This document shows, piece after piece, positions 1,748-37,744 of a DNA stretch of 37,744 bases. The DNA comes from a virus (taxonomy: Duplodnaviria > Caudoviricetes), in IMG/VR virus record IMGVR_UViG_3300049189_000041, positions 1 to 37,744 of that record. One strand, written 5' to 3'. Under the pieces are notes generated by a model that worked only from the letters and a program-made list of their open reading frames with translations, made no database searches and had not been told where the DNA came from. How positions within the stretch are numbered: position 1 is the first letter of the stretch; each line of letters begins with the position of its first letter. The position numbers and the translations under genes were made by a program.

Positions 1748-1833
1748 GGCTTACGCTGTAGGGTTACTGTACATGCAACGCGCGTAGTATGAATCATTTT
1801 AGTATTGTGTCAAGCGTGGTAGCCACAGTGGGT
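1748..1833. repeat. Left copy of an 86-bp perfect inverted repeat
   Basis: Exact reverse complement of 37659-37744. Confidence 0.97.
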
Positions 1834-1834
1834 G

Positions 1835-2341
1835 TTACCAGAGGGTTATTGGTGGCGAGTCTTGAGTGGTGACTTCAAGTTGAATGCTACCAATAGTCGC
1901 CGTGATTGCGGCAATATCCGCCAGGTCTACGGTCGTCACCTGATATAACACACGGACTTGTACTTGCGAGATGTCCTGCCCAGCTCCGAGGCTGACAGAA
2001 AACACAGTCGGCCCCTGCGCCGACGTGAAGTTCAACCGCTCAACCGCGTTTATCCATGCGCCGCCGCCGTTCAGAGTGTATTGGAGTCTAAACGTGTTTG
2101 TCGGCGTCGGCCCCACCAATGCCCCGTTGCTCGTGTGGGTTATCTTCAGCGTTACGGCGGTTTTCGCCCCGACGACATCTTGGAACGTGTGCCAACGGCA
2201 ACTCTTCGTCAAGCTGTTGCCCGCGCTTTCTGACGTTGTGGTTTCGGCGTGGCCCGTGTTCGATGGCGTATCTACGGCGGAACCGGACAATACGGCGTCG
2301 GGACTTTGAAACGCGGTCGGAGTAAGCGTGTGGATAGGCAT
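1835..2341 (-). CDS. Beta-rich Thr/Ser/Gly protein, possibly virion-associated
   Basis: Composition and beta-strand patterning; coupled to the upstream ORF by a TAATG overlap. Confidence 0.6.
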   Translation of the reverse strand: MPIHTLTPTAFQSPDAVLSGSAVDTPSNTGHAETTTSESAGNSLTKSCRWHTFQDVVGAKTAVTLKITHTSNGALVGPTPTNTFRLQYTLNGGGAWINAVERLNFTSAQGPTVFSVSLGAGQDISQVQVRVLYQVTTVDLADIAAITATIGSIQLEVTTQDSPPITLW

Positions 2342-2697
2342 TATTTCCCTTTCGCTGTTTGAAGTCCTTCGTTGAGTCTTTGCGCCATCTGCCGAGCGAG
2401 CGCGCCGGCGTCGGAGGCAATGAACGCGGACAACTGCTTACCGTCGCGGCCTTCGATCAGCAAAACGCCGATGACGCCGCGGCATCCAACGTCCTCGCCG
2501 AGAGGCGAGATCGCGGCGGTTATCTCGTAATCCCCTCGCTTTGCAGTGGTCACTACAACGTTGCTGTTCGTCAGTTCGTCGCGCAGCAATCGGGCAAGCT
2601 CTCCGTCTTGCGCATCGAGCGACACGCGCGGCTTCCTGTCCTGCGCCATTGCAGACGCGGGCAGAATCAAAAACAAAATCAGTAACATGTTTTTCAT
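2341..2697 (-). CDS. Secreted hypothetical protein with signal peptide
   Basis: MKNMLLILFLILPASAMA signal peptide. Confidence 0.7.
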   Translation of the reverse strand: MKNMLLILFLILPASAMAQDRKPRVSLDAQDGELARLLRDELTNSNVVVTTAKRGDYEITAAISPLGEDVGCRGVIGVLLIEGRDGKQLSAFIASDAGALARQMAQRLNEGLQTAKGK

Positions 2698-2902
2698 GAT
2701 CTCTTATGCCGCTCAAGGTCTCGTTTGAGCCGTAATCGATTTGTGATAGTCTAACACCCATCGCGGGCCGCTCAGGGCTGAAACCCCTGAGCCGGCCTAA
2801 AACCTGGGATTGGCAGGTACGCGACGGGCAATTGCTTATATCCGAAGCCCTTTCGACTTAGCAACCCCTTCTCTTGCCTGCCTCAAACAAAGTGAGGCAA
2901 CA

Positions 2903-3583
2903 ATGAACAACAACGTTCAAGAAGCATTCAAGTACAACCGAGCGCGAAAGAACGTAATCGTCGGCGGGATGGTGATCTTGCTGGCGATTACGGCGCTTTC
3001 CTGCGTCAGTTCCTACCAGATTTACAAGGACGGCTTCGCGGATTTCCCGCGAGAGCTTCAAGTCGCGCTTGCAATGTTCGCCGTCGTCGTCGTCGAAGGG
3101 GCGTTCGTGTGGCTGGTCTACGGCTTCACCCGGGCCTTCTCTTCCGGGATGGAGCGCCTGGTTTCCCTTGCGGGTATGGGGTTCCTCGTCGTGGTAATGC
3201 TTCTCAACCTTGTGACGCATTTCATGATGGTCAAAGGCATTCCCCTCGCCGAGTTTCAAGAGTCGTGGATCGCGTGGGGCGCGGTGAGCGTTTTTATCGC
3301 CGTGTTGCTGATCGTCCTGGCCATCACGCTCGGCGATCCGGTGATTCGGTTGATTCGGTTGGAACTTCGGTTTAAGGGTAAGCAGGAGGAAACCATCCTT
3401 GCGGCCAAGACGGACGCGCTCGACTCGGACAAGATTCAACACGCGATGGCGGAACGCGCGGACCTCGAGGCCGACCAGCTGGCGACAAGGATACTCGGGC
3501 CCGGCGTATTGCCCCAGAAACTGGACCCCGGCTTCGTCTCTCAAGATCGGCGCAACCGGACCAGAGGGGGCTCATTGGACTGA
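2903..3583 (+). CDS. Four-TM membrane protein with helical C-terminal tail
   Basis: GAGG RBS before ATG 2903; four hydrophobic segments. Confidence 0.8.
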   Translation: MNNNVQEAFKYNRARKNVIVGGMVILLAITALSCVSSYQIYKDGFADFPRELQVALAMFAVVVVEGAFVWLVYGFTRAFSSGMERLVSLAGMGFLVVVMLLNLVTHFMMVKGIPLAEFQESWIAWGAVSVFIAVLLIVLAITLGDPVIRLIRLELRFKGKQEETILAAKTDALDSDKIQHAMAERADLEADQLATRILGPGVLPQKLDPGFVSQDRRNRTRGGSLD

Positions 3584-3600
3584 CGACCGGGAGCGTCGAA

Positions 3601-3975
3601 ATGCAGGCGCGGGACGCTCCCGTGATTGAAGCGCCAAGGCTCGTGGCAATCGAACCGAAGACGCCAATGATTGCCACTCGTGGCAGTAAGCCGATAAGGT
3701 CTTTGAGAACAACGACTCAACGAACGCCAAAGCCAAAAATGAAAACAGGCAGAAAGCCGCCCACCACGAGCGGCTACGAGTGGCGAAAGAACGGCGCCGG
3801 TTGGGACTTGCGAAAGGTTGTTTACATCGAAGACGCCACGAGTGGCAGACAGCGCAAACGGCCTTATCTTGGACACCTGTCCAAGACGGCTTTCGGGGAA
3901 CTAAACCGCAAGCATAAAGGGGCGCGGTTGGAGCGGGCAATCGCTGAGTGGATCGAGGCTCACGACAAGTCCTAA
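3601..3975 (+). CDS. Basic hypothetical protein, possibly nucleic-acid binding
   Basis: Follows the membrane gene; K/R-rich; ends just before a terminator. Confidence 0.65.
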   Translation: MQARDAPVIEAPRLVAIEPKTPMIATRGSKPIRSLRTTTQRTPKPKMKTGRKPPTTSGYEWRKNGAGWDLRKVVYIEDATSGRQRKRPYLGHLSKTAFGELNRKHKGARLERAIAEWIEAHDKS

Positions 3976-3980
3976 AAACA

Positions 3981-4005
3981 AAGCCGGGTTGATCGCCCGG
4001 CTTTT
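3981..4005. terminator. Bidirectional intrinsic terminator AAAGCCGGG-N7-CCCGGCTTT
   Basis: GC hairpin with A-rich and T-rich flanks between convergent genes. Confidence 0.75.
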
Positions 4006-4052
4006 CCTTTGATCCCCGCCTCGCGTGGAGCCGTGGGCGGGTTAGGCGGCGG

Positions 4053-4328
4053 CTACAGTTCGCCGGTGTCAGCGAATCGCAGCAGGGCAGTAGCGATCTC
4101 CCGCGCCATCTCGCGTGTCAGGTGCATACGCGCCAAGCAATCGCCTGTAATGTGATGGTGGGTTCCCTTATCCATCCCAAGCCATATACACGGCCCGCTA
4201 TCTTCCTCGTCTTGGACGCTCTGCAATGAGGACTCCTGAATCGAGCAGGCGTCGCCATTATAGTCTTTGAAATCGGCGCGCTGAAACCCTCGGTCATTGG
4301 CAGGTACAAAATTCAGTTTAAAGCTCAT
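4053..4328 (-). CDS. Phage hypothetical protein (RGF..FKD..CSIQESS..IWLG..RMHLTRE)
   Basis: GGAGGAG RBS; motif pattern recalled from small phage proteins. Confidence 0.75.
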   Translation of the reverse strand: MSFKLNFVPANDRGFQRADFKDYNGDACSIQESSLQSVQDEEDSGPCIWLGMDKGTHHHITGDCLARMHLTREMAREIATALLRFADTGEL

Positions 4329-4360
4329 ATTCTCCTCCATTTCTCACTCAACAGAGTGGG

Positions 4361-4636
4361 TTAGGCGGCGGTGGTTGCTCTTTCTCTTTCATCCGCGCCA
4401 TTGATATACCGATTACAGAGTAAATCCCAACCGCATGTGGGACACCATTCAAGATAGCCGTGCCCCTCGCACTCATCGCAGCGGACGTTATCCATCGGCG
4501 CTAGGCAGCAACAGGTATCATCGCCGCAGTCGTGAGAGCCTGTGCCGTCGCCGCCGCAACTATCGCACCCGCGCTCATATGTGTGGCTCTCGCATTTCGG
4601 GCATATCTCGTCGCCTAATTCAACGTTTGGATGCAT
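4361..4636 (-). CDS. Cys-rich zinc-finger protein with DnaJ-like CxxCxGxG repeats
   Basis: CPKC, CDSCGGDG, CDECEGHG, CPTC; GGAGG RBS. Confidence 0.75.
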   Translation of the reverse strand: MHPNVELGDEICPKCESHTYERGCDSCGGDGTGSHDCGDDTCCCLAPMDNVRCDECEGHGYLEWCPTCGWDLLCNRYINGADERERATTAA

Positions 4637-4690
4637 CGTTTTCCCCTCCATTCATCACTCAACCGAAAGTACCATTCGGTTTCTCTCAAA

Positions 4691-5710
4691 TTATTCATCA
4701 TCGTCCTTGAACGGCTTCGAAGCCTCTGGGTAAATCGCCTTCCAAATCAGGCTTGAATAATCCTTACCGTCAAGCATTTTGAACAGAATGGCGGGATGTG
4801 GGCAGGTTTGGAAGTAGAGCGCTGTAGTCTTCCGGTCGCCCAGGTCTTTGAAATCATCCTTACAGCGGTCTTCTATTGCTGCGTATTCCGTCCTCAACTG
4901 CGCCTCAACCGTCCGAACCCACGCGTAAAACTCATCAGGAACGCGGTCGATAATCGGCTGCAAGCCTTCCGGCGTTTGCATTGATTCCCAGATGCCGCGA
5001 GCGCTCAAGCCGGTCAGTAAGCGGTGAAGGCGTTTATACTCGGCGAACTTCATCTTTACGCGTTGGCCAGACTCGGTGAATCGCACTACGAAGCCTTCCT
5101 TGTTTGGGTCTTCAAGCGCTACGAGTTCGGCAAAGTCCTGAATACCGTCGTATCGCTTCGCAATCGGGAACCCAATATCTTCAAGTGGCAAATCTTTTCC
5201 AGTGGCCGTGTCAATGATGGCCAGCAAAACCAAGTCCTCCATGTCGCCGTAATCAACGACGATTCGATTGGACGGATGAATAATCTCGAAAAGATAGGTT
5301 AGCTCGGTCCGGAAGCGAACCCAGTGATAACGAGAGTCTAAGATATGATTCGCAAATTCGGACTGCTCGCTGGTAAAGCTGCCGCGCGTGGCTATCCAAG
5401 GCCGTTCGCCGATGAAGTAGAGAACGCCAAGTGAGCCGTCCAATTTGTCGTATACCTCAAACGGGCCGCTTGGCAGATTGCCGTCAAGTTGTTCGACGCT
5501 AAAGAACTTAGGGAACGGTCGCGCAACAATCTGGCCATCGTCGGCCACAATCAAGCCGCGACAGGCTATTGTCTCAGGCGTCCAATGCCAGTCGTATTGG
5601 CATTTATGCGTATAATTGTAAATCGTCAGCGGCGCCATCGGGTGTCGCTGCTTTGAGATATAGCCCTCTCGAACCTGTTCTTCTACGTTGTTCCAATTTA
5701 GCATATTCAC
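4691..5710 (-). CDS. T4 Rnl1-family RNA ligase
   Basis: CRGLI..VARPFPKFF, motif I KLDGS, ATRGSF, FEII, EGFVV, RVKMKFAEY. Confidence 0.9.
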   Translation of the reverse strand: MNMLNWNNVEEQVREGYISKQRHPMAPLTIYNYTHKCQYDWHWTPETIACRGLIVADDGQIVARPFPKFFSVEQLDGNLPSGPFEVYDKLDGSLGVLYFIGERPWIATRGSFTSEQSEFANHILDSRYHWVRFRTELTYLFEIIHPSNRIVVDYGDMEDLVLLAIIDTATGKDLPLEDIGFPIAKRYDGIQDFAELVALEDPNKEGFVVRFTESGQRVKMKFAEYKRLHRLLTGLSARGIWESMQTPEGLQPIIDRVPDEFYAWVRTVEAQLRTEYAAIEDRCKDDFKDLGDRKTTALYFQTCPHPAILFKMLDGKDYSSLIWKAIYPEASKPFKDDDE

Positions 5711-5831
5711 CCCACCTTCAAATGCGTTGAACTCGACTCCCCAGGGCGCGCGTGCGGAGGGGAAGAGTGGTTATTTGGTCCTCAATCCTCATTCACCCGA
5801 CGCCAGGCCCAGTTGCGTTTTGGTTTGGTCA

Positions 5832-6002
5832 TCACTCCACTTCTCCGCACTCGCCATCAAGCGATTTCAGAAACCCACTTATACGCACCCGCACTGACTG
5901 ATCCCATTCACTCCAGGCAGTTCCGTCAGCGTGCCAACCGTCGAAGATTTGGGCAATATCGGTCAGTAGTATTTGTAATTCTGAAATTTGCTGTTCAGTC
6001 AT
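5832..6002 (-). CDS. Small hypothetical protein, 56 aa (MTEQQISELQ...)
   Basis: Manually found; GGAG RBS; overlaps the end of the upstream ORF. Confidence 0.6.
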   Translation of the reverse strand: MTEQQISELQILLTDIAQIFDGWHADGTAWSEWDQSVRVRISGFLKSLDGECGEVE

Positions 6003-7530: not shown

Positions 7531-7532
7531 AA

Positions 7533-8273
7533 TTATTCCTCCACTCCTAACGCCTTCTTCGCGATCTCATAATAGCGCTCGCGGTCGGCAAGTCCATTTA
7601 GGCCACCATTAATCGCGCGCGTAAGTGCCTTGAAGTTCCGCTGATCGGCATGTTCGTTGCACTTGTTCAGTTTCCAGTACAGCGCCGCGATTTGGAACGC
7701 ATATTCAGGTTTCGCTGCAAGATCGGGATTTCCTTCCAGGTCTACGCCAAGCAGATCGCCGTATTTACGGAAGTTAAAACGACCCGTAATCATGATCACA
7801 CCCCGCCCACGGTACCTGTAGCCGTCGCCTTTCTCCGTGTTTCCAAGTTTCTTTGCCAGGTCGCTGGGCGGCTCGTATTTCTTCTGCTGATCCGTCGGCC
7901 CCCATATTTCCTGAAGCCATCGGAATTCGCCGCTCTCATGAGAAACTTGAGCGAGAAAAGCTGAGACGCGCAGCGCCGTATTGATTTCGTATTTTGCCAT
8001 CGCTGCGACGAGATGCGGCAGATATAAGTCGCGTTTCTCTGCCGGCAGGTTCGGCATGATCCTGTGAAGATCAGCGGCCATAAATGGGAATGATCGCTCA
8101 GCCGCCTCGCTCTCGGCAATCGCGGCCTCGATTGCTTTTAGGACCGGATCAAAGCCCCAGCCGCCCAGGTCGCGCCCGTCCTCGGCAATCAGAGCGAGCC
8201 TGACGGCCTTCTCGCCTGCGGCGTTGGTGAATAGCTTTTCCGTGGCAATGCGCGCGCGTTGGTTTGGTGCCAT
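7533..8273 (-). CDS. Glycoside hydrolase family 19 endolysin with N-terminal extension
   Basis: AFLAQVSHESG, LGN..GDGYRYRGRG, TRAINGGLNGLADR. Confidence 0.9.
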   Translation of the reverse strand: MAPNQRARIATEKLFTNAAGEKAVRLALIAEDGRDLGGWGFDPVLKAIEAAIAESEAAERSFPFMAADLHRIMPNLPAEKRDLYLPHLVAAMAKYEINTALRVSAFLAQVSHESGEFRWLQEIWGPTDQQKKYEPPSDLAKKLGNTEKGDGYRYRGRGVIMITGRFNFRKYGDLLGVDLEGNPDLAAKPEYAFQIAALYWKLNKCNEHADQRNFKALTRAINGGLNGLADRERYYEIAKKALGVEE

Positions 8274-8289
8274 AACTTTATTTGCTCCT

Positions 8290-8658: not shown

Positions 8659-8759
8659 TCGTCGTCCTCCCCTTCCGGTTTGACCTCGCAGAATATCGCT
8701 AAGCACACAGCGATCGGCGCGAGGATCAGGATTAGTGATGTTATTAGGGGGATATGCAT
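8655..8759 (-). CDS. 34-aa single-TM peptide (MHIPLITSLILILAPIAVCLAIFCEVKPEGEDDE)
   Basis: Manually found; fills the gap and its stop overlaps the next start. Confidence 0.45.
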   Translation of the reverse strand: MHIPLITSLILILAPIAVCLAIFCEVKPEGEDDE

Positions 8760-10455: not shown

Positions 10456-11199
10456 CTAGCCGTACATTTCTCTTAGGGTGTTAAGAGCTTCGGCCCATGT
10501 GATTTCGTTGTTGATGGCGGCTTGCGCGTAGTCGCTCGATTCCTTCTCGGGAACCTTCCACTTGCGGACCGATTTCCAAAACTCGGTTGCTGTAACACTC
10601 GGAGTGTTGTTCCCCAGCTGGGCGTCTTGGATCGGGGCAGGGGCCTTCGTCGGCCGCGGCTTGCTCACCGGCGCCGGTTTGACAGGTTCCGTCTCTCCCG
10701 GCTCGGCGTACTTCTCGGCCTTGTAGTCACTGTCGTACAAGTCGAGCGCGATACCCAGCAGTGAGGCGCACTTCTTCAGCGCGTCGGTCGCCGCGCCCTT
10801 GTAGCAGTCGCCTATCGAGACCGGCGCCGTACCGTCGCGCTTCATTTCTATCGGCTGGCAACCGTATTGCGTCTTGGTGACGGTCCGGCCATTCATGCGG
10901 ACCGTCAGCGTTCCGCGTACTTTTATCTCAAAAGGCCTGTCGCCATTCATGAGCAGTTCTTCGTTGTCGGCCACGAAATCCCAATCCCAGCCAAGCGCCT
11001 CGTTAAGAGTGCGGATAACATAAGCGCCGTCAGTGTATTTGAGTTTTTGCCCACCCCTACCCTCACGTACGCGGATTTCACTTGACGGCGTGCGCTGAGA
11101 CAGCATTCGCTTTATCGCCTCAAGTTGCCTGTCTGGCGCAACCTCCGCCAGTTCCGCCGACGCGTCGGTTTGTCGAATCTGTAAAGCTGTATTGTTCAT
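10456..11199 (-). CDS. Rad52/Rad22-family (Sak-like) ssDNA annealing protein
   Basis: REGRGGQKLKY..VIRTLNE.LGW.W..KGAATDALKKCASLLGI.LDLY. Confidence 0.88.
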   Translation of the reverse strand: MNNTALQIRQTDASAELAEVAPDRQLEAIKRMLSQRTPSSEIRVREGRGGQKLKYTDGAYVIRTLNEALGWDWDFVADNEELLMNGDRPFEIKVRGTLTVRMNGRTVTKTQYGCQPIEMKRDGTAPVSIGDCYKGAATDALKKCASLLGIALDLYDSDYKAEKYAEPGETEPVKPAPVSKPRPTKAPAPIQDAQLGNNTPSVTATEFWKSVRKWKVPEKESSDYAQAAINNEITWAEALNTLREMYG

Positions 11200-12238: not shown

Positions 12239-12309
12239 ATTCTAGTCAATTGACTAGCGAAGTCAAGAACTTTTTTGCTATTGACTAAACTTTTTTTTGG
12301 GGGTATAAG
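12239..12309. promoter_or_regulatory. Divergent promoters with palindromic operator
   Basis: Leftward TTGACT-N16-TAGAAT (12266-12239); rightward TTGACT-N17-TATAAG (12281-12309); perfect palindrome CTAGTCAATTGACTAG at 12242-12257. Confidence 0.8.
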
Positions 12310-12317
12310 TGGCGCCC

Positions 12318-12539
12318 ATGAAAAAACAAGACAAACTACTGTCGGTCGCAGAGGCGGGAGCGCAACTTAGCGTCGTTCGCCAGCGCGTCCTACAGTTAAT
12401 ATGGGACGGGCTCCTTGAGGCCGAGCGGGTAGGGCGTTCTTATGTGGTAAGGGAGAGCGCGGTCAAGGCCTACAAGGACAAAGGTAAACCGAAGCTAGGA
12501 AGGCCCCCGAAGGGTTCAAAGAACGGACACAAGAAATGA
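12318..12539 (+). CDS. Xis/MerR-like HTH DNA-binding protein with GRP tail, probably leaderless
   Basis: LLSVAEAGAQLSVVRQRVLQLIWDGLLEAERVGRSYVV; ATG 8 nt after the -10 box and no RBS. Confidence 0.85.
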   Translation: MKKQDKLLSVAEAGAQLSVVRQRVLQLIWDGLLEAERVGRSYVVRESAVKAYKDKGKPKLGRPPKGSKNGHKK

Positions 12540-12766: not shown

Positions 12767-13999
12767 ATGACCGAACCGACGAAAAAAGAGAAGAAGGCCA
12801 GAAGGACCGGCCACCGAAAGCGGCTCGGACCTGACAAGTACCTTTTGCGCGTATTCCTCCTGAAGGACTCAGAAGGGAAGCGACGCTACTATACGGAGAC
12901 CTTCCACGGAAAAGCCTACCAGGCCGAGGATCGCATCCGGGAAATTCTCCGGCGTCACAGGACAGGCGAGCCCTTGAAGGTTTCGGCGGACAGTTTCGGA
13001 GCGGTCCTTGACGAATGGCTCGAAGCGCAAAAACACGCCGTCGCGGAGAAGACCCTGCGGACCTACGAAGACTATGTACGGCTTTACCTTCGGCCAAACC
13101 TCGGCGGAGCGCTTCTCGCCCAGGTCACAGCGGCTGACATTCAGAAGCTCTACAATAAACTCCTGGAAGCGGACTATTCCCGAGGGACTGTCGGCCAATG
13201 CCATGTAATCCTCGGGATGGTCTTTCGGTTCGCTGTCGGACGCCGCAAGCTGACCGGATCGCCGATGGCCGGGGTCCGACCCCCGCGTTCTCAAGCCTCC
13301 GGGGAGTCTGAAGGGTCCAAGGCGATGACCAGGGACGAGGTCGGCAAATTCCTCGACGCCGCGAAGGATTCCAAACTTCTGAACCTCTACGAACTGGCTT
13401 TCCACGTCGGATGCCGCCCAGGCGAACTGCTCGCGGTCAAATGGGACGACCTGGATCCGAAGGGCCGGACGGTTCGGATAGATCAGACGATCGTATGGCG
13501 CAAGCGGGGCGATTGGTATTTGAAGCCGCCGAAGACGAAGGCTGGCCGGCGAGTGATCGCGGTCACTCAGGCCATGGTCGACGTGCTACAGGCCCAGCGG
13601 ACCCTTCAGCTTCAGGCGAGACTGAAGGCCGGGCCGGCGTGGAAGGATCACGGATTCGTGTTCACGCAGGACAACGGCTCGCCCTGGGCGGTCTGGAATC
13701 TATACGCGGATTTCAAGAGAGTCCTGAAGGCCTCGGGGCTGCCGTGGCGCTTCTCGCCCTACACGGCGCGCCACACCGTTGCGAGCCTCCTGATGGAAGA
13801 CGGGGCGAATCCGAGAGCCGTCTCCGATCGTCTAGGACATGCCCGGATCGCCATGACGCTCGAGAATTACACGCACATTTCCAGCGGTCATCAGGCGGAC
13901 CTGAGCGCCCAAATTGAGGGTCTCGTGAGAGCTAGGCATCGCATAAGCAACAAAGATGAGGCCGATTTAAAGGACGACCCTTTAGAATCAGCTATTTAG
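12767..13999 (+). CDS. int: Tyrosine integrase
   Basis: GCRPGELLAVKW (R), PKTK (K), YTARH, RLGH, NYTH (Y); N-terminal arm- and core-binding regions. Confidence 0.95.
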   Translation: MTEPTKKEKKARRTGHRKRLGPDKYLLRVFLLKDSEGKRRYYTETFHGKAYQAEDRIREILRRHRTGEPLKVSADSFGAVLDEWLEAQKHAVAEKTLRTYEDYVRLYLRPNLGGALLAQVTAADIQKLYNKLLEADYSRGTVGQCHVILGMVFRFAVGRRKLTGSPMAGVRPPRSQASGESEGSKAMTRDEVGKFLDAAKDSKLLNLYELAFHVGCRPGELLAVKWDDLDPKGRTVRIDQTIVWRKRGDWYLKPPKTKAGRRVIAVTQAMVDVLQAQRTLQLQARLKAGPAWKDHGFVFTQDNGSPWAVWNLYADFKRVLKASGLPWRFSPYTARHTVASLLMEDGANPRAVSDRLGHARIAMTLENYTHISSGHQADLSAQIEGLVRARHRISNKDEADLKDDPLESAI

Positions 14000-14670: not shown

Positions 14671-14919
14671 GCACCTCGGTCCGAGTGTCTGGGCAGACTC
14701 TATACTACCTTTCGACTCTCGGCAACCGTTCGAGGGTAAAAATCCATGCTAAATATGAGAAAAGCCCAACGGCTTGGGACCGTCAGGCTTTTAGAACTGC
14801 ACCCAGATAATACGGTGGACTGGCCAAATACTACCACTAACCCCATTCTAATTCAATCGACAAAACGCCCAGCCTGTACGAGATGCGGACGCGCCAATCC
14901 GTTCAAGGAGGTGTCCCGA

Positions 14920-16559
14920 TGAAAAACAACGCTCCCCCTCTGCCGCGCGACCGCGATCTGGAGGTCGCCGTCCTTGGTTCCCTTCTCTTCTCCGAGTCTC
15001 CGGATAGGGTCAAGGAAGTCCGCTCGATGGCGCCGCCTGAATGCTTTCTCGCCGGGTCTCGGGAAATCTACGACGCCTTGGGCGACCTGGCCGACAAGGG
15101 CGACTCGATTAACCCGGTCATGCTGGCCGACAGGCTGAAGGATCGCGGATCGAAGATTGAGCCGGCCCACCTGGCGGAAATGCTCATCAATAAGCCCATC
15201 ACGTCGGACCTAACCTCGGAGATTGCGAAGCTCCGGGAGTTTGCCACGAAGCGAGCGATTCTCAGACACGCGGAACACTGGTTTAACGAGGCTCAGGCCC
15301 GCGACGTGGACATTTCCTCTCTCGTCGAGCGGATCAGGAGCGCAGCCGGCGAGTTCGACGGGATGACCTCGGCTGACGACTCAGGGGCGTTTCCCTCAAC
15401 TCCCGGCTTCTACTCCTCTCTGCGCGAACTTCACGCTAAGGAGACCGTGCCGGCTGAAGACCTGATGATCGGGGTCCGGCGCCGACAAGTAACGATCTTC
15501 GCCAGTGTTACGAGCGTCGGAAAGACCACTATCATGCTCAATCACGCCCTCGCGGCGGCTGGTGGCCAAAACTGGGCGCCGCTCCTCCCTGAGCGGCCCG
15601 AACGGCCCCTGAAGATCGTCTTCATCGACGCTGAGAGTACAGATGATGAGCTAAAGCGGGACACTCAGACGATGCTTAGGACGATCGGGAACGGAGACCT
15701 CGCGGCTGAAAACTTTATTCCGGTCGTGGACGCAATGATCGACGGCGAGCCGCTCAATCTTTCGACCAAGAAACACTTCGACCAGGTAAAACGGTTCCTT
15801 AAATACCATCAGCCGGACATAGCGATCTTCGATACGATAAGCGCCCTTTTTACCCTCTACAGCGAGAACGACAACGCCGAAGTAGTGCGCAAGGTGATTC
15901 GGCCACTGAAGGAGCTGGCGATCGCTGGAAATTGCGCCGTCTGGGCCTCTCACCATATCGGTAAAGCCGGTGAGTCCGACGAAGCAGAGGAGGCGTACAG
16001 GGGCCGGGGAGCTTCAGCCTTCGGAGCGAACGTACGCGGCGTCATTACCTTACGAAAAGAAAAGGCGCTCGGCGATGGGTACGTGCGCTTGACGCTAGGC
16101 AAGTCCAAAGGCTCGAAGCTCGACCCGGTTAATTTAAAACTCGATTTCGCCAAGCGGGCCTTCGAGCTTTGCGCGGCGGCGCCCCAGGCTCAGACCCCTT
16201 ATCAACAGGTGATCGGAGTTTTCAACGGAAAGCCGCTGAAGACCGGCGAGGTCAAAAAGCTTCTTTCTGATCTCTCAAGGGCGTCTGTCGAGCGGGCGCT
16301 GGCCGAGGCGGTCAAAAACGGGGACCTGCTTCGGACGACTCACGGCGCCTACGAGCGGCCCAACAATCCCCAAAATCCCAACTCCCTCAACTCCCTCACT
16401 CCTTATAGGGATGAGGGAGTTGAGGGAGTTCCCCAAATCGAAGAAAGTGAAGATGTTAGCGGATTTTTCGAGCAGGTGTCCGAAAATGGGATGAGGGACT
16501 TTTTTGTAGGATCCGAGCCCTGGGAAGACGATCCAGTTCTCGATGCCATAGACCAATGA
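14920..16559 (+). CDS. Replication helicase: DnaB-like N-terminal domain plus AAA_25/RepA-type ATPase and possible C-terminal wHTH
   Basis: DLEVAVLGSLL..IYDAL..INPVML; Walker A ASVTSVGKT; FIDAE; Walker B IFDTI; ENDN; HHIGK; RGASAF; AAGGAGG RBS. Confidence 0.85.
16380..16430. repeat. Palindromic iteron cluster, candidate replication origin
   Basis: (AACTCCCTC)2A-N13-T(GAGGGAGTT)2, 19-bp perfect arms in the 3' end of the helicase gene. Confidence 0.7.
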
Positions 16560-17670: not shown

Positions 17671-17997
17671 ATGGCGCGAAAGAACACACCAAAAACTGAA
17701 AACGGCTCTGATCTGGATCACTACGCTACAGAGCTTCCCTCCGATCCCGCCGCTCGGATTATCCCCGTGGACGAAAAAGGCCTTCGGGAAATGCTTTCCA
17801 AGCTGAGAGACGGCGAAAGATTCATTGCGGACCTTGCCGCTAAACTGGGGGTCAGCGCCCAGCATCTAGGCGAGGTACTGAAGGGTGATAAAGGCTTCGG
17901 TCCTAAGCTGCTCGGCGCGCTGGGAGTGGTCCGAACTTATCGGATGTTCGATATTGAAGTCATCATGGAGGATTCGACCGATGATCGAATCGCTTGA
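17671..17997 (+). CDS. XRE/Cro-like HTH protein
   Basis: IADLAAKLGVSAQHLGEVLKGDK..GPKLL.ALG. Confidence 0.75.
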   Translation: MARKNTPKTENGSDLDHYATELPSDPAARIIPVDEKGLREMLSKLRDGERFIADLAAKLGVSAQHLGEVLKGDKGFGPKLLGALGVVRTYRMFDIEVIMEDSTDDRIA

Positions 17998-18421
17998 GCG
18001 CGTAATCCCCGAAGAGTCCCGGCAAAAGCTGTTGCTGGCCGTGGCCTTCCCTTCCGCTCGCAAGGTAGGCATCAGAGCGGCAGCGGATGAGGCGGGGATG
18101 AACGTATCTGATGCCGTTCAACTTTTGAATGATCCAACGTTCATCGCCCAAATTCGCCAGATCACTTTCGCCGAAGCCTCGGCTGCGCTTCACGGTCGCG
18201 GTGTTCCCGATCTGGTCGCAATAGCCACGGAGTCGGAGGAGGACCGCAACAGACTGACGGCCTGGCGCGTAATCGCGCAGATCACGGGCGACCTCAAACA
18301 GAAGCATCAACACGAAGTAAGGATTACTTTTGAAGACCTCCGCAAGCGTCAGAGCGATGGCGATCTGGCGGGGCTTTTCGATATTCGATCAAAGGTAATC
18401 GAGGGCGAAATCGAGGAATGA
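17981..18421 (+). CDS. Putative terminase small subunit
   Basis: GGAGG RBS; HTH-like N-terminus; ATGA-coupled to terL. Confidence 0.65.
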   Translation: MIESLERVIPEESRQKLLLAVAFPSARKVGIRAAADEAGMNVSDAVQLLNDPTFIAQIRQITFAEASAALHGRGVPDLVAIATESEEDRNRLTAWRVIAQITGDLKQKHQHEVRITFEDLRKRQSDGDLAGLFDIRSKVIEGEIEE

Positions 18422-20337
18422 ACGCCACAAGCCCACAGCTCATCCCGTTCGACCGGATAAAAATGATCGTTGATCCCGCGCGGATCGAGCGAGAGTATCA
18501 GGCGTATCTCAAGGAGGGTGACGCCTATATTGACCGCCGATTCACTGATCTACGCGATTGGGACTTCCCTGTTTACTGCGCCGTCAATATTACGATCACT
18601 ACGAAGGATGGGCGCGCCGTTCCATTCCTGTTGAACAAGATCCAGCTCAGGCTTGTGGAAATAATCCTCGAAGAATTGACAGCCTTGCGCGCCGTCAGAA
18701 TCCTGATAGACAAGATCAGGCAAGGTGGCGTCTCGACCGTAATCCTGATTTTCTTCTATTGGTTGACATCCCTTCGTGAGAATCGAAACACTCTTGTAAT
18801 CACTCAAGACCTGGAATCGGTGACGAACTTTTCGAGCCGCATACGCGCGGCGATCGAGGAAGCCGACCCGCTTCTGACTCCGAATATCAAGAGCGAGCGC
18901 AACAATCTGATTCACTTCGCCAATCCCACGGCACGCGGCGGCAACAGGCGCGAACGCAAAGGCAAAGGCCTCGATTCAAAGATGATGTTTTTCACCTGTA
19001 AAAAGGTGAGCATCGGGCGCTCTTTCACGTTTCAATACGTCCATATTTCGGAGGCGGCTTTCTACCTCGACCAGAAGCCGAAGGTTAGCGTTAAGACCCT
19101 GCTCAGTTCCCTTGCCCATGCCGTTCCGCTCCTGCCTGGCTCGATCCTGATTATCGAAACCACTCCGAATGGCCTGAACGAAATAGCCGAAATGTGGGAC
19201 AAGGCCATCAAGAAACAAAACGAATTCCGTCCGGTCTTCTTCCCCGCTGTCGCGTCCGAAGAGTACCGCGCGCCGCTCCCGGAAGGCGCAGCCCTTGAAC
19301 TGTGCGAAGCCGAAGAGATGTCGGGTGTTCCAACCATGTACGGCAACGAGCTGGCCGAATCAAAGGTAATCAGGAAACAGCTAATCGAATGGTATCCAGA
19401 CCTTTATGAGAAATGGGGCGACAAGTGGCTTGAGCGCGAATTGCTCGCTCGGTTGAACTGGCGCCGCCAATACATCGCCGGACCCTGCCATGGAGACAAG
19501 GCGGTATTCCGCCGCGAATTTCCGCTTACGCCCCAGCAAGGCTTCGAGGCCACGGGCCGCAACTGCTTCGACCTGCGATCCGTCGCCTTGATGCGGAAGC
19601 TGGTCGAAGACGAAGGCATCCAGCCGCGGCGCTACAGTTACATCCACGATCCTGAAAATACCGATCCGTCATCGAAGTTCAAGGCCGACGATTACGGACC
19701 ACTGGCTGTATACGAACCCCCACAGTTGGGCGTTCAGTACGTATTATCAGCGGACCCCGCGCTCGGCAATCCTAATAGCGATCCGTCAGCCTTGCTCATT
19801 CTGGCAGTGTCGGAAGAGTCGCCGTATCTCCGTGAAGTGGCGTCGTACAACAAGATCACGAAGCCTGACGTATTCGCGGAGTTGACTTACTACCTCGGAA
19901 CGCTTTACGGAATCGCTCTTGTAGCGCCCGAGCGAAACGAGCGGGGCGGCTTTGTCGTCTGTCTGAAACTTCATAAAGAACTGAAATATGAGCGGCTTTA
20001 CTTCGAATTCAACGCCTACGACAAGAAGCCAGCGGAGGAGCCGGGGTTCGTCACGAAGGATTCAAACAAGGCGACGATTGTGGCCGGCCTGGATTATCGA
20101 ATCAGGGACGCGGAAATCCTACTCAGAACGCCGCTCTTGCTTGAACAACTCGAACATTTCGTTGAACTCGAAAACGGCGAACTCGGCGCGGAACCCGGAT
20201 ACAACGACGACCTGGCGATGTGCGCAATGATTGGCGTGAATGTCTCGCTGAAGGTTCACTATTACATACCGAAGCCTGCGCCGCCGCCCGGCTCGATAGG
20301 CGACCTGAAGAAGCGCGGAATTTTTAAGAGGAGATAG
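18418..20337 (+). CDS. terL: Terminase large subunit
   Basis: LNKIQ, KIRQGGVST, YVHISE, ETTPNG, REFP, SADPALG, DDLAM. Confidence 0.93.
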   Translation: MNATSPQLIPFDRIKMIVDPARIEREYQAYLKEGDAYIDRRFTDLRDWDFPVYCAVNITITTKDGRAVPFLLNKIQLRLVEIILEELTALRAVRILIDKIRQGGVSTVILIFFYWLTSLRENRNTLVITQDLESVTNFSSRIRAAIEEADPLLTPNIKSERNNLIHFANPTARGGNRRERKGKGLDSKMMFFTCKKVSIGRSFTFQYVHISEAAFYLDQKPKVSVKTLLSSLAHAVPLLPGSILIIETTPNGLNEIAEMWDKAIKKQNEFRPVFFPAVASEEYRAPLPEGAALELCEAEEMSGVPTMYGNELAESKVIRKQLIEWYPDLYEKWGDKWLERELLARLNWRRQYIAGPCHGDKAVFRREFPLTPQQGFEATGRNCFDLRSVALMRKLVEDEGIQPRRYSYIHDPENTDPSSKFKADDYGPLAVYEPPQLGVQYVLSADPALGNPNSDPSALLILAVSEESPYLREVASYNKITKPDVFAELTYYLGTLYGIALVAPERNERGGFVVCLKLHKELKYERLYFEFNAYDKKPAEEPGFVTKDSNKATIVAGLDYRIRDAEILLRTPLLLEQLEHFVELENGELGAEPGYNDDLAMCAMIGVNVSLKVHYYIPKPAPPPGSIGDLKKRGIFKRR

Positions 20338-20340: not shown

Positions 20341-22293
20341 ATGCCGAGAAAGTATCGCCCGCCCGCCGCAAATACGAGCGACAGAATGCGCGTCAATCGC
20401 GCCTCGGCTGCTGTTGTCGAAGAGACCGGAGACGCCGAGAAAGACGGCCCGCTTTGGATGTCGCGCCTGATGAAAACGCTCCATATGCGCATGGAGTCGG
20501 ACAACGGAGACCGCCATTGGGCCGCGTATCGGAATTGGTTCAACGGGCGGCAGTGGCAATTCGAGGACACTGGGAAAAACTCCTGGGACCTCTACAGTGA
20601 CACGATCACGAGCGTCTACACGAATAATATTGTCCAAACCATCGCGTCGGCCTACATGCCCTTCCTCTTGAACGGCAAGATCGAATTCAAAGTGAAGCCG
20701 AAGCCGAACCGCCCCGGCGACGTGAACGCCGCCGAGATTCACACGTCGATGCTCAACTACGAGTGGGGCGAGCGGGAGATAACCGAACAGGTCAAAAAGG
20801 TGGTCGACGATGTTGTGGTGCTGGGCCACGGCATAGCCGAGACGGCCTACATCGTCGAAGTGGACGAAGCGCGCCGGAAAGCGTCCGGCAACATCGAGTA
20901 TCGAGACTATGTGAAGCGTGACGCTGCGATCGTTGAATGGGTAGACCCGCATGATTTCCTTCACGACCTGACCGGACGCGACGGGACGCCCCGGACGGGC
21001 CGTTGGGCCGCAAGGCGCACATGGATTCCGATTGCGAACGTCGTGGCCAACAAGCGCTATGATCCGAAGGTTACAAGGCTGATCGAAAGCGGCGCCGCGT
21101 CTCATAACCTGACCAGCCGCTCGGCCTATAGAAATGACGCGAGATTCAGCGCGGGCGGAATGTTCGGCAAGGATCTGGCCGTTCGGATTCCCGAAGAATC
21201 CTCAATCGCAATATGGGAGATATGGGACAAGGGCTACAGGCAAGTAATAACAATGGCCGAGGGTCTTCCCTACCCTCTCGACGTTGAGCCGTGGCGCTAT
21301 CCGTATCTCGACGGCGTACCGTTCGTGATGATCCAGTTCCTTCGAGCCGAAGGCCTGCTGTATCCAATCGGCGTTGCGCGCCAACTCAAAGACCCGCAGT
21401 TGCAAATGAACCGCGTTCGGACCCAGCAAATCCAGAACGCCCGCGCGCAAAAGAATATGTACGGGGCGACTCCCGGCGTAGCAAAAGAAGCCCTCGATGA
21501 TTTCGCTAATCTGCCGAATCTGAGCGTTATTCGAATGGAGCGGAACGGCGATCTGTTTGCAATAGATAATCCTTCCCTTAATCGGGATAACCTGATTTTA
21601 GAGCAGGCCATCGCGCAGGACGGACAGAAGGCGACCGGCGCTGATGCGATATTCCAGGGCGAAACGCCATCGGCGCGAACGCCCGCAGGGGTTGTGACGA
21701 CGCAAGTTAATGTGATGCGGTTAAAGGCCGACGATAAAATCTCGAACGTCGAGGCGGGCGTAAACGAGATCGCTCGCCAGGTCCTTCAGCATTTGAAGGC
21801 GAACCGAGTGCAATCCGACGTGATCGAGATCGTCGGCCTTCTCGGCTCTCAGTGGCGCGAGTACAGCCACGCCGAGATACAGGCCGAAACCGATGTCACG
21901 GTGAGCTACTTCTCCGCTCCGAAAACCAACCCCGACATCGAGCGACAGCAGAAAACGCAAGTCGCCCAAGTCGCGGCGCAGTTCGATCCACTCATGGCTC
22001 AACAGGGATCGCCCACGCGGATTAACTTCACAGAGCTGTTCGCGTGGCTTCTGAAATCCTTCCCTGACTATCAGGACGTGGGCCGCTTTTTTACCCCCGC
22101 GCTCGTCATCCAACCCGAACTACAGCAAACATCAGCGCCGGCAGGGGCAGGGGCGGGCCTCCCGCCCGCTCTCGCAGGTCAGCTCGCGCCGCAACAAATT
22201 CCAGGCCAGCCCGGCATCGATCAGCCGGGCGAAGGCTTTTCATCTGAGGATCTTTTGATGCAAATCCTCGGCGCTTCAAGTCAAATCCAATAA
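20341..22293 (+). CDS. Portal protein (podovirus type)
   Basis: Follows terL; 650 aa; Q/P-rich C-terminus. Confidence 0.85.
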   Translation: MPRKYRPPAANTSDRMRVNRASAAVVEETGDAEKDGPLWMSRLMKTLHMRMESDNGDRHWAAYRNWFNGRQWQFEDTGKNSWDLYSDTITSVYTNNIVQTIASAYMPFLLNGKIEFKVKPKPNRPGDVNAAEIHTSMLNYEWGEREITEQVKKVVDDVVVLGHGIAETAYIVEVDEARRKASGNIEYRDYVKRDAAIVEWVDPHDFLHDLTGRDGTPRTGRWAARRTWIPIANVVANKRYDPKVTRLIESGAASHNLTSRSAYRNDARFSAGGMFGKDLAVRIPEESSIAIWEIWDKGYRQVITMAEGLPYPLDVEPWRYPYLDGVPFVMIQFLRAEGLLYPIGVARQLKDPQLQMNRVRTQQIQNARAQKNMYGATPGVAKEALDDFANLPNLSVIRMERNGDLFAIDNPSLNRDNLILEQAIAQDGQKATGADAIFQGETPSARTPAGVVTTQVNVMRLKADDKISNVEAGVNEIARQVLQHLKANRVQSDVIEIVGLLGSQWREYSHAEIQAETDVTVSYFSAPKTNPDIERQQKTQVAQVAAQFDPLMAQQGSPTRINFTELFAWLLKSFPDYQDVGRFFTPALVIQPELQQTSAPAGAGAGLPPALAGQLAPQQIPGQPGIDQPGEGFSSEDLLMQILGASSQIQ

Positions 22294-24129: not shown

Positions 24130-25143
24130 ATGGCCTTAGACACCTCTTTCAATCGCGTAGTGGCAACGACATTGCCGCTCTACGCGCCGCGAGTCACGGA
24201 ATCCATAGTCGGCTCAATCGCCCTGCTATGGAAAATGGCAATGATGGACGGAGTAGAAACCCGGCCAGGTGGAACTCAGATCGTCGAGCCGACCATCCTA
24301 ACCACCAATACAAACGTCCACGCCTACACGGAATACCAGACGCTTGACACTGTCCTGCAATCCGATCCGAACGTGGCAAGCTATCTCTGGAAAATCATCG
24401 CCGGAACCGAAGGGCTTTCACTGCTGGAACAGGGCAAGAATTCCAACAGCGCGACGGCGCCCGTGGACCTGTGGGACGCGATCATCAATCGCCTGGCGCT
24501 CTCGATGAGAATCGAGGTCAACCGCGAGCTTTTCCTTGACGGAACGGGCGCAGGTGGCGCGGAGCTTACCGGGCTTGCGCTGGGGCTGGATTTCGCCGGA
24601 ACCAATAGTGTCTACGGCAACATTGACAGTTCAACCTTCACAAACTGGCGCAATCAAACGGAAGCCTCTCCGGGCAATGTCATAGGAACTCCCACGTTGT
24701 TGCCGCCCGCGATGCGCCGTCTGGCCAATTCATGCTCAAGCCAGAACGAATGGCCGACAATGTATATCACTTCGAAAGAAGTGCATGAGGCGTGGGAAGG
24801 AACGCTTGTATCGAATGAGCGTTATATCCGCGAGGCGTTCGACGAGGATATGGTTCGGAGCGGATTCCAGAATTACATCTTCAAGGGCGGTGTGGTTTGC
24901 TTTGACGATCACATATTCCCGCATACGACTTCGGCCTCCCCTTCAGCTACAGCCGGTCATGGATTCCTCGCGCTTAATCTCAAGTATCTCAAGTTCGTGA
25001 TGATGGAGAACTTCGATTTTGTGATGAGCGATCCGATCAGACCTTTCGATCAGATGGCCGACACGATCCAGATGATCCTTCACGCGAACGTCGTAATGAA
25101 TAACCGGCGCCGTCAGGGCCGGATGAATGTAGCGACAGCATAA
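24130..25143 (+). CDS. Major capsid protein
   Basis: 337 aa; GGTQIVEP, LFLDGTG..LTGL, YGNID, GFQNYIFKG, LNLKYL; AAGGAG RBS. Confidence 0.88.
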   Translation: MALDTSFNRVVATTLPLYAPRVTESIVGSIALLWKMAMMDGVETRPGGTQIVEPTILTTNTNVHAYTEYQTLDTVLQSDPNVASYLWKIIAGTEGLSLLEQGKNSNSATAPVDLWDAIINRLALSMRIEVNRELFLDGTGAGGAELTGLALGLDFAGTNSVYGNIDSSTFTNWRNQTEASPGNVIGTPTLLPPAMRRLANSCSSQNEWPTMYITSKEVHEAWEGTLVSNERYIREAFDEDMVRSGFQNYIFKGGVVCFDDHIFPHTTSASPSATAGHGFLALNLKYLKFVMMENFDFVMSDPIRPFDQMADTIQMILHANVVMNNRRRQGRMNVATA

Positions 25144-31904: not shown

Positions 31905-31911
31905 GTGTTTT

Positions 31912-32874
31912 ATGGCGGTATCGAACCTTTCAGCGTTTCAACAGGCTTTACAGACCGTGGTCGGCTCAGGCAAGGGCGCGGGCGCGAACCTGACGCCTGA
32001 AATCCTGGGCCGTGTGGCAGATTCGGTATTCGGGCCATTCCCGATTCCGCCCGGTTCGCAAATCATTTTCCAGGGGCCGGACCGCGCCGAGTGGATCGAT
32101 CCTGACGGCTTCAAGCACAGCGCGATGCGCTCGCTCGACGGGCGCGATCCGAACGCTGGCCGCATTATGGACAACACGGACCGCCCGGCGATCCTGCCAG
32201 CCGGCCAGGGCCAGCAGAATCTTTTATCGCAACTGACAGGCGCGCAGGGTATACAATCCGACATCGAAGCCGTTCGCAATCTGGCCGCGCGGTTGCAGGA
32301 ACCCGCCACGCTCGCCACGCTCGACCCCGCGACAGCCGCATCGCTGAAGGCCATCACGGATAACACGCTGCTGCAATTAACCGAGCAATTCAAGCGGGAC
32401 CAGGCGGCGAACGTGGCGCAGCTATTCGGGAATCGGGTTCAGTCAAGCTCTATCGCGACAGATGCCCTAAGCCGACTTCTGGAGAGTCAGGGCCGTGTTA
32501 CATCGGACGCCCTGGCGCAAGGCGCCGCGCGCGAACTCGGAGCGCGGCAATTCGTAACCGATACCCAGCGGGCGAACCTTGCGACCGCGCTTCAAGGCTT
32601 GCTCGGCGGCGCGGACCTTCAGAGCGGATTGATTCAAAATCTTTCAGGCCAGCAGACGCAGCGCGACATCGCGGGCGGAAATCTCAATCTGGGCTTTGCC
32701 GATCTGGCTGAAAGGGCGAGACAAGGCAACCTGAACTTCGAGCTTAGCCAGCAAGAACAGGATCGAAAACTCGCGGAATCCAGGGCATTATTACCGAAGA
32801 TTCTGGCGACGATTCAAACGCTAGGCCAGACTGCCCAAGGCGTTGGAACGGCCATTGGGGGCTTTAAGGCGTAG
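31912..32874 (+). CDS. Putative internal virion/ejection protein 1
   Basis: A/Q/G-rich helical protein after the tail genes. Confidence 0.6.
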   Translation: MAVSNLSAFQQALQTVVGSGKGAGANLTPEILGRVADSVFGPFPIPPGSQIIFQGPDRAEWIDPDGFKHSAMRSLDGRDPNAGRIMDNTDRPAILPAGQGQQNLLSQLTGAQGIQSDIEAVRNLAARLQEPATLATLDPATAASLKAITDNTLLQLTEQFKRDQAANVAQLFGNRVQSSSIATDALSRLLESQGRVTSDALAQGAARELGARQFVTDTQRANLATALQGLLGGADLQSGLIQNLSGQQTQRDIAGGNLNLGFADLAERARQGNLNFELSQQEQDRKLAESRALLPKILATIQTLGQTAQGVGTAIGGFKA

Positions 32875-37000: not shown

Positions 37001-37394
37001 CGCTCAGTATTACGAACAGAAACCGATAGACGCGGCAATCGAGCAGCGGCCCGGCCTTCTGACCGAACTGACGCGCCTTCAGGTCCGGATTGCCGATCCG
37101 CGCCGCAAGCCGGGCGAAACGGACGCCGCATACAAGGGCCGGCAGCAAGCCATGGCCAATCTGTATAGCCGATTTGGCGTCAGCCTGATGTCGGATCGCC
37201 AATACGCGAACTTGCCCGACACTGAAAAGCGGGACGTTTTTGATATGTTGCATTCCAGAATTTTGGATGCGATAAACACGCGGGATCGGCGCACGGGACA
37301 GTTTCAGGCCTCGCAGTTGATAAACTCGCTTCGTAAATCCGCCAGGCGGAAAACCATCCGCGAGCGATTGATTTCTCGAAGGCCCCCGCTTTGA
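34056..37394 (+). CDS. Large internal virion/ejection protein with embedded ParB/Srx-like domain
   Basis: 1112 aa; position; PMTVV..FIVEDDGNHRV..IPV. Confidence 0.7.
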   Translation: MADDAIAKFLKRPVPKPKPVSIDEFLKEPIVSTPAPTPRPGLGTAKNLALGVEQEVYGNLAPSAVSGLEALGAALTGDLGPAAQIGELALRGVGQILMGGNPSFAGAAKSNAEAIARTQGARQAGRQGDPIYGAIERAGREVETEAAQDPSLRGRIERGAGRIGAAAAPGLVTAIASGGSIPAVSAVAAAQSFNSPEMLIPNVALNAVPIPIGKVVAPIVRRIRPGKVTAEVAPVVPGIVPEIPAISPETPLPAIQTRPPSPALAPDVPVNPAPQEAAALNSAIQKLGTDSVDEIAEMIANANRRFNKTVSAPGQPKRAITPIERQSMREDYQKVSALTEAENKALAEVLPERTFSPVNKILVEGEPTARAISDIPLDEPSAQLDANLRELKAFFGSRDIVQESKIAAAVGQSVDDPAIVSTADLGLDVVPVPVRPVDAVPVTRRISVDDISLGRDTLSKGRMFQAQESLKGGVKPETKGVPLRQQVEPMTVVPDPQRPGKFIVEDDGNHRVALLKLQGVTDDIPVKSFETPAQTASIRSAVGPRAGEIAPMEVEIGRQLGQVSRPSVARNMDPLNVESMAGAEQLPLLDVAQKSRLRKALNIAADVYNIPRALLSSSDISAPFRQGAILTLPPSRWGKALRSSVEMFRALVPDKPTSIKGGIKAQFQPKTERFQRMVDAIAADPDAQAGQNAGLHLGTQSQGALRKAEEEFVSRTADRIPIVRESQQAYTAYLDNIRLNTFKQYKQAIDAQGFSAAQTERAYKAAADWINIASGRGSFGPKLDRAMDALNFFIFSPRLLASRIQVLNPLTYLKNATTAEGRVVLKKQMSEMGQFTGMIASTLLLAKAAGFKVGTSPEKPDFLRISLGSYHYDGLAGLQPVMRLIWNVGADAVRASKGERPQTGARDALDVGARFLRGKAAPVPSFFVDFLDRKTFEGKPFNFTDAAVERVTPIMWQDFYEAYQREGLGGPLMLSPGLVGFGAQYYEQKPIDAAIEQRPGLLTELTRLQVRIADPRRKPGETDAAYKGRQQAMANLYSRFGVSLMSDRQYANLPDTEKRDVFDMLHSRILDAINTRDRRTGQFQASQLINSLRKSARRKTIRERLISRRPPL

Positions 37395-37431
37395 ACATGA
37401 CCTCCCCCGGAAAGTTCAGCAGGCAGCCTGC

Positions 37432-37653
37432 ATGCGTTTTATGAAAATTGAACTGCTTTCAATTATCATTAGCAACCTTGTTCTTGTTATCGGCGCAGTC
37501 TGGCGCATGGGCTTACTTCTTTCCAAGATCGAAGCCAGACTTGCGCACGTAGAAGACAAACTCGGCATCTTCAACGGCGAATCCCTACGCCGCCTCTCCG
37601 ATCTTGAATCTCGCGTGCTTTACCTGGAGCGCATCGATCTAAAACCTAAATAA
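37432..37653 (+). CDS. Single-TM plus coiled-coil protein, holin candidate
   Basis: N-terminal TM then heptads; last gene of the late arm. Confidence 0.6.
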   Translation: MRFMKIELLSIIISNLVLVIGAVWRMGLLLSKIEARLAHVEDKLGIFNGESLRRLSDLESRVLYLERIDLKPK

Positions 37654-37658
37654 CCCCA

Positions 37659-37744
37659 ACCCACTGTGGCTACCACGCTTGACACAATACTAAAATGATT
37701 CATACTACGCGCGTTGCATGTACAGTAACCCTACAGCGTAAGCC
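37659..37744. repeat. Right copy of the 86-bp inverted repeat, running to the window end
   Basis: Exact reverse complement of 1748-1833. Confidence 0.97.

Follow-up and report, generated by a model that had tools for sequence, protein, structure and literature searches.

The 37,744-nt virus record IMGVR_UViG_3300049189_000041 (IMG/VR; Duplodnaviria, Caudoviricetes), which we analysed over its whole length and refer to as the window, carries near its left end a sequence that returns in inverted orientation at its right end. We found that this sequence is part of a 448-bp repeat and that the phage map is a 38,124-bp circle, made of a 35,825-bp core, the repeat, a single-copy spacer of 1,403 bp, and an inverted copy of the repeat. 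The record is 380 nt short of this closed map. Both core junctions, the loop, the sizes, the single-copy state of the spacer and the conservation of the element in related phages are observations. Beyond them, we tentatively favour, at slightly below even probability, a reading in which the two identical copies in the 38.1-kb circle serve as a packaging or terminus signal (virion DNA of the form a-core-a'-spacer-a, a being the repeat) and recombination between them flips the segments that they bound.

A 448-bp inverted repeat closes the genome map

The original prediction, made from the letters alone, described positions 1748–1833 as the exact reverse complement of 37659–37744 and regarded these 86 bp as a minimum. 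Both statements held. The two stretches are 100% complementary, the second-longest inverted pair in the window being 36 nt at 75%, and the repeat extends over 448 bp (1386–1833) in unitigs. These were obtained as contigs (k=31) from six soil sequencing runs of three studies (X1–X6), each containing at least 97% of the words of positions 1–6000; runs X7–X20 (0.26–0.41 of the words) were left out of all results. As none of the six runs forks at 1748, the 86-nt match is only an assembly overlap, the visible tip of the repeat. The assembly graph forks at 1833 in all six, one branch leading to 1834 and the other to the reverse complement of 37658 onward, and the loose end at 1833 is in each run the reverse complement of 37629–37658. 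The two branches have similar depths in five runs (X1, 19.5/18.4; X2, 13.6/12.5; X3, 25.6/24.2; X4, 13.6/12.9; X5, 25.6/21.9) and unequal depths in X6 (29.9/19.1). A unitig adjoining the repeat in X6 (1804–2719) likewise stands at 29.9 against 19.8 further in, possibly from headful redundancy or bias.

The inner border was resolved in three runs. In X2 and X5, a 448-nt unitig spans exactly 1386–1833, and a 1463-nt loop unitig comprises 1–1385 with 1386–1415 at both ends in opposite orientation. X4 also forks at 1386, has a variant C-run and gives a repeat unitig of 443 nt. The graph therefore closes into a circle in three of the six runs, all of one study. Spacer depth relative to the arms is 1.19x in X2, 0.94x in X5 and 0.95x in X4, as for a single-copy segment; the unitigs that hold the spacer reach 1.3–1.4x in X3 and X6. 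These data bear on the two arrangements offered by the original prediction. A linear genome in which 1–1833 is duplicated as collapsed inverted terminal repeats (ITRs) is contradicted, since 1–1385 stands at 0.94–1.19x (X2, X4, X5) and is looped between the repeats in X2 and X5. A circle with an invertible segment at 1–1747 was right as to the circle and the repeat-bounded segment and wrong as to the borders, which enclose a 1.4-kb segment between 448-bp repeats; inversion itself we infer from this layout.

The element is conserved in related phages

Close relatives were found by searches with TerL and an ejection protein, TerL being 70–91% identical where the gene lies on the contig. The element occurs in six distinct related phages (G001/G002/L093, counted once because L093 and G001 are 99.99% alike; G003; G010; L091; L092; and G005), which bears out the conservation that the original prediction had named as a check. 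In all but G005 it is found past the end of the structural arm, and in G003, G010 and L093 a stop codon lies at its border. The L093 contig contains the arm, a 395-nt repeat, a 1,628-nt spacer and an inverted copy in one piece, with 115 of 115 positions identical between the copies; both copies are also present in G003 (110/110). The G003 repeats lie at 1–542 and 26849–26958, and the 26.3-kb core between them has no match to the integrase, helicase or annealase of the window, which perhaps reside in a larger, unseen spacer.

In G005, the element is located about 1.5 kb upstream of possible terS-terL genes, with the end of the contig matching the neighbouring 127 nt in fold-back orientation at 97%. 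Packaging signals often lie upstream of terS-terL. The G005 repeat (8250–9028 and 31849–31975) is upstream of the late genes, extends some 300 nt into the next open reading frame (ORF), and leaves the integrase and a RecT-like gene outside the structural part that it brackets. This phage keeps the element while its integrase is essentially unrelated to that of the window.

The visible copies are identical within three of four genomes, and the elements are 66–82% alike between genomes, a similarity above that of shuffled sequences (z = 16–29 for four relatives, and a weak 3.9 for G005). Identity within and divergence between genomes would be expected if the copies were continually copied from, or recombined with, each other. 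In contrast, seven distant relatives (TerL 23–40%; G007, G008, G011–G015) lack the element, with none of five positive by pattern and no profile match, and no long inverted repeat was found in the complete circles G008 and G012 (36.9 and 47.8 kb). The layout is thus a trait of this clade. The sizes of these circles also indicate that the genome size of the window is normal for the wider group despite a CheckV completeness figure of 44%. Records G004 and G009 and loci L051/L090, L052 and L053 stop short of the repeat position and do not bear on the element. As assembled, the spacer has one orientation in the window and L093 and the opposite one in G010, a weak indication given that G010 is another phage and assemblers may choose at an unresolved repeat.

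Architecture of the repeat

The first 150 nt of the repeat are C/A-rich and the later part is G/T-rich, a strand switch of 0.40 compared with a maximum of 0.25 in all 1,417 core windows. The switch recurs in the relatives and is weakest in G005. The GC content (56.5%) is similar to that of the flanks. The best-conserved part is the outer 90 nt, where TTGACA is kept at the same place in all six elements compared. The motifs listed in the original prediction are present, namely TAGTAT at 1785 and 1800, TGTACA at 1768, ACGCGCGT at 1778 and an outward TTGACA at 1808–1813(−). The TTGACA belongs to a promoter-like site that runs in the same direction as both gene arms. In phage T7, too, a host promoter next to the terminal repeat faces outward. 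An exact 30-nt search of viral contigs gave no matches, and the repeat has no match among 50,697 phage records. Two candidate features of the repeat were rejected: a G-quadruplex as a conserved signal, its pattern occurring in just one of six elements, and a structured RNA, for which there was no Rfam match and the consensus fold of five sequences had a covariation penalty of +5.4.

Repeat depth and a possible terminal position

Depth of the repeat relative to the arms is 3.04 in X2, 2.66 in X5 and 2.25 in X4, all of one study, and 3.0 in X1 if the spacer is single-copy. The values for X2 and X5 are 4–5 approximate standard deviations (SD) above twofold. In a rough simulation of sheared and transposase libraries, respectively, repeat depth was 2.0 in both for a permuted genome, 1.9 and 1.3 for a genome cut inside one copy, and 3.0 and 2.2 for three copies. 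The available portion of the PhageTerm paper describes terminal repeats as doubling coverage and transposase libraries as losing termini (PMC5557969). A depth of about threefold fits a third, terminal copy and hence the order a-core-a'-spacer-a; we consider it nearly an even matter, leaning slightly against, that the element is terminal in virion DNA.

Several observations weigh against the favoured reading as a whole. X4 fits twofold better than threefold depth (z = +1.2 versus −2.9). In the two other studies, the core-side 340 nt of the repeat stand at about 1.0x (X3) and 1.6x (X6), with breaks at 1443–1511; repeat depth is thus library-dependent and, in these two runs, lower even than the twofold that the graph requires. 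The records do not give the library types, and bias from amplification is possible. The inner fork at 1386 was found in three of six runs, all from one study, whereas X1 extends 67 nt past position 1 with no second piece on the repeat, X3 ends at position 1 and X6 extends 25 nt beyond it. Each of the six runs is itself a possible source of the record, and k=31 contigs cannot reveal orientation or ends. The CheckV rating also conflicts with a closed 38-kb map. Nor is the strand switch a general mark of terminal repeats, as in three records compared it was not seen at the left ends of phiEco32 and N4 and was partial in T7. Finally, TerL is too distant from cultured phages for a packaging class to be assigned.

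Proposed mechanism and alternative explanations

If the element is a packaging signal, the terminase would recognise it, and packaging would start and end there. Either copy could serve as the start; packaging would then pass the inverted copy and stop at the next direct copy of the concatemer. The free ends, together with the Rad52-like annealase encoded by the phage (or host RecA), would recombine the copies and keep them identical, with isomers in the orientation of spacer versus core as a by-product. Because the borders at which the two arms end are identical, flipping would have no effect on expression; nor would it switch host range, as the promoter is present in both copies and tail-fibre genes do not extend across a border. 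Extended to the relatives, this suggests, at odds that we place somewhat lower than those of the mechanism itself, a clade of small, temperate podophages from soil that probably infect Blastocatellia and have a herpesvirus-type genome: a 400–540-bp packaging element at both ends and inverted inside, packaging from either end, and up to four isomers. The second copy would be placed differently among relatives, with single-copy parts ranging from 36 + 1.4 kb to about 23 + 8 kb.

The main competing explanation, less probable but carrying substantial weight, is that the two repeats are internal to a circularly permuted genome packaged by headful, that RecA or the annealase drives a flip-flop as in Anabaena cyanophages, and that the excess depth is a library effect. 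It predicts the same assembly graph, the 448 bp fall within the 400–700 nt of the cyanophage repeats, and it accommodates the 2.25x of X4 and the values below twofold in X3 and X6. Moreover, the distant TerL matches include Stx2/933W-like and T4-like phages, which package by headful. It is harder to reconcile with the excess over twofold in X2 and X5, the 3.0x implied by X1, the 2.0x simulated for a permuted genome in both library types, and a GC content of the repeat that is like that of its flanks. Two copies might instead have a fixed orientation, as a duplicated promoter or regulatory block kept alike by gene conversion, without isomers. We regard this as improbable. The assemblies of the window and L093 agree in relative orientation, and with k=31 contigs two orientations were not seen at the read level, but homologous recombination can act on perfect inverted repeats of 448 bp, flipping is known from similar repeats in cyanophages and in phage Matilda, and G010 was assembled the opposite way, with the reservation given above.

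The original prediction had also named the tyrosine recombinase as a possible driver of flipping. Inversion of the spacer by the phage integrase at a conserved site in the outer block (P1 cix-like, or 2-micron-like with possible amplification of the genome) would suit the conserved outer motif with its small palindrome and the presence of a tyrosine recombinase. However, the integrase is unlikely to be an invertase because no word longer than 10 nt is common to the repeat and the integrase region and because the G005 element coexists with an unrelated integrase. In addition, the gene has the three-domain build usual for phage integrases and an excisionase-like neighbour, and the candidate origin at 16380–16430 lies about 14.5 kb from the nearer repeat. 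We give this explanation a low probability. Collapsed 1.8-kb ITRs on a linear genome are lower still: both arms do join the same sequence and the spacer-holding unitigs are at 1.3–1.4x in X3 and X6, but the single-copy spacer and the closed loop in X2 and X5 largely refute them, L093 shows a second copy after the spacer, and neither PolB nor protelomerase was found in six frames. A fold-back or chimera, for which the contig-end overlap speaks in being what assemblers leave at a fork, is refuted by the same junction in six of six runs from three studies and by the same element at the same place in relatives at 66–82% identity, and retains almost no probability.

Gene content

We scanned 56 ORFs against Pfam and PHROG families; the main features are collected in Table 1. 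The gene ends beside the two repeats are as originally predicted. The last leftward gene has a homolog that also abuts the repeat in G003 and lies within the structural operon in G005, G007, G008 and G013; at the end of the other arm, as here and in G003, it is perhaps a relocated structural or fibre gene. The spacer ORFs (61–181 aa) are small accessory genes with their own promoter-like sites, none of them matching tail families, and spacer contents vary between relatives except for one gene start and one promoter. The homologs of two spacer genes (257–454 and 630–1175) in the distant, repeat-free circular relative G012 are located at 13182–14784, just after the last structural gene, as mobile accessory genes might be. 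Two relatives have a gene of some 90 aa (L093, 14542–14823; L065, 1280–1545(−)) that in the window is cut after about 15 codons by the inner repeat border, which resembles a deletion joint.

Table 1. Features of the 37,744-nt window.
Feature	Position	Strand	Remarks
Spacer between repeats	1..1385	.	Single-copy; 1,403 bp including 18 nt missing before position 1
Spacer gene, 65 aa	257..454	-	80% homolog in G012
Spacer gene, signal-peptide-like start	630..1175	+	No Pfam/PHROG family; look-alikes mainly Acidobacteriota; 78% homolog in G012
Spacer ORF, 61 aa, hydrophobic	1172..1357	+	
ORF running into repeat	1344..1562	+	Initial ~15 codons shared with a 93-aa gene that is complete in L093
Repeat copy A	1386..1833	+	448 bp; inner third rich in C/A, outer part in G/T; ~90-nt core-side block conserved
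Four G-runs, G-quadruplex pattern	1391..1417	-	C-run length varies (homopolymer variants in X4, X6)
Candidate sigma-70-like promoter by pattern, TTGACA-16-CATACT	1786..1813	-	Points from core into repeat; 2 sites found, 1.4 expected by chance
Small palindrome GTGG-TAG-CCAC at outer border	1816..1826	.	TAGCCAC invariant in six-sequence alignment
Last leftward gene, 168 aa	1835..2341	-	Stop 1 nt from copy A
Rad52/Sak-like annealase	10456..11199	-	PF04098, E 1.2e-12; candidate for recombination between repeats
Excisionase-like helix-turn-helix gene	12309..12539		Neighbour of integrase
Tyrosine integrase	12767..13999	+	Usual three-domain phage build; named homologs mostly Blastocatellia/Acidobacteria
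DnaB-like helicase	14883..16559	+	Holds palindrome 16380–16430
Terminase small subunit candidate	17885..18421	+	178 aa; by position only; no family match
Terminase large subunit	18418..20337	+	Nearest cultured relatives 22–28% identical over 29–89% of length
Portal, SU10/P22-like	20341..22293	+	
Major capsid protein	24130..25143	+	phrog_9953, E 3.5e-33
Last rightward gene, 73 aa	37432..37653	+	Stop 5 nt from copy B
Repeat copy B	37659..37744	-	First 86 nt; remaining 362 nt beyond record end

An SU10/P22-like adaptor is also encoded. The palindrome within the helicase gene recurs in G004 (4662–4714) and is a possible replication origin. In agreement with the original prediction, neither protein-primed PolB (PF03175) nor a protelomerase (PF16684) has a match in the six frames of the window; the same is true for serine recombinases (PF00239), with a control found in 13 of 14 genomes. 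Rfam gave no match to a tRNA or att-like element in the window, and among GTDB genomes none had a prophage with a capsid or TerL alignment. As the named integrase homologs come mostly from Blastocatellia/Acidobacteria, these are the likely hosts. Other genes include a T4 Rnl1-like RNA ligase (4691–5710), a GH19 endolysin in the leftward arm (7533–8273), a PAPS-reductase-like gene (8803–9627) and, within the head genes, a protein with a fused FkbM methyltransferase (25622–26971). The adjacent genes at 30148–31035 and 31041–31904 have in common a paralogous N-terminal region of about 80 aa.

Comparison with known systems

Inverted sequence at apparent ends is a feature that the window has in common with the ITR phages phi29 and PRD1 and the hairpin-ended phage N15; unlike these, it has no protein-primed PolB or protelomerase, and its repeat is closed by a spacer loop. 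The C segment of P1 and the G segment of Mu, both temperate phages, are bounded by inverted repeats (about 600 bp in P1) and switch tail-fibre genes by means of a serine invertase, whereas the window has neither such an enzyme nor tail-fibre gene halves in its spacer.

Terminase phages with repeat-bounded isomers are already known, and the closest systems are Anabaena cyanophages with inverted repeats and the jumbo phage Matilda. For the Anabaena/Nostoc cyanophages A-1(L), N-1, Elbi, A-Lf14, A-Alj1 and A-Hlh1, the available portion of the preprint reports 400–700-nt inverted repeats and two isomers, detected by polymerase chain reaction and in reads (bioRxiv 10.64898/2026.02.14.705889). As in the window, and in L093 and G003, a pair of repeats of this size splits the genome of a tailed phage in two, and no dedicated invertase is identified in that portion. 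There, however, the segment makes up about 30 of 68 kb and the phages are described as packaging by headful, in contrast to a 1.4-kb spacer, identical copies, depth of up to threefold and isomers that we infer from the map. The repeat of cyanophage A1 (717 bp at 98.5%) lies far from terL and has no strand switch, and the element profile finds nothing in A1. Burkholderia phage Matilda has a flipping 1.3-kb bidirectional terminal segment between 1.5-kb inverted repeats, for which a flip-flop by homologous recombination is proposed in the part of the preprint available (bioRxiv 10.64898/2026.10.21.760668). In Matilda/Sarumanvirus, as here (1,403 bp), a small segment between inverted repeats is hidden by assembly as short end overlaps. 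According to the same source, Matilda is a lytic myovirus of 267 kb without circularisation, each end of which has its own repeat pair, and the two repeats (1.5 and 18 kb) are unrelated, while in the 38-kb window, which encodes an integrase, a single 448-bp repeat joins both core ends in all six runs. Whether or not the element is terminal, a nearly whole genome can lie behind a record that is rated linear and 44% complete and whose ends overlap over a short inverted stretch, and a spacer or whole arm is easily lost in assembly.

In our literature search, in which most subscription papers were out of reach, no description of a tailed phage that combines a terminal repeat with an internal inverted copy came to light, nor one for a phage of Acidobacteria. 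The layout that a threefold repeat depth would imply is that of herpes simplex virus, whose a sequence (about 425 bp) is present, according to the available text, in two direct copies at the termini and an inverted one inside, contains the signals for packaging and cleavage, and is associated with four isomers (PMC8461477). The likeness is one of layout, and no homology is claimed; herpes simplex virus infects animals and also has long b and c repeats and DR1/DR2 subrepeats, and termini and cleavage at the phage element are putative. Should the element prove terminal, a bacterial virus would have reached the same solution as herpes simplex virus, a terminal packaging repeat with an inverted internal copy. 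Such a phage would make it possible to study, in a small bacterial system, how ends made by terminase generate inverted repeats and isomers and make them uniform, which the Matilda and cyanophage preprints leave open as far as their available portions go.

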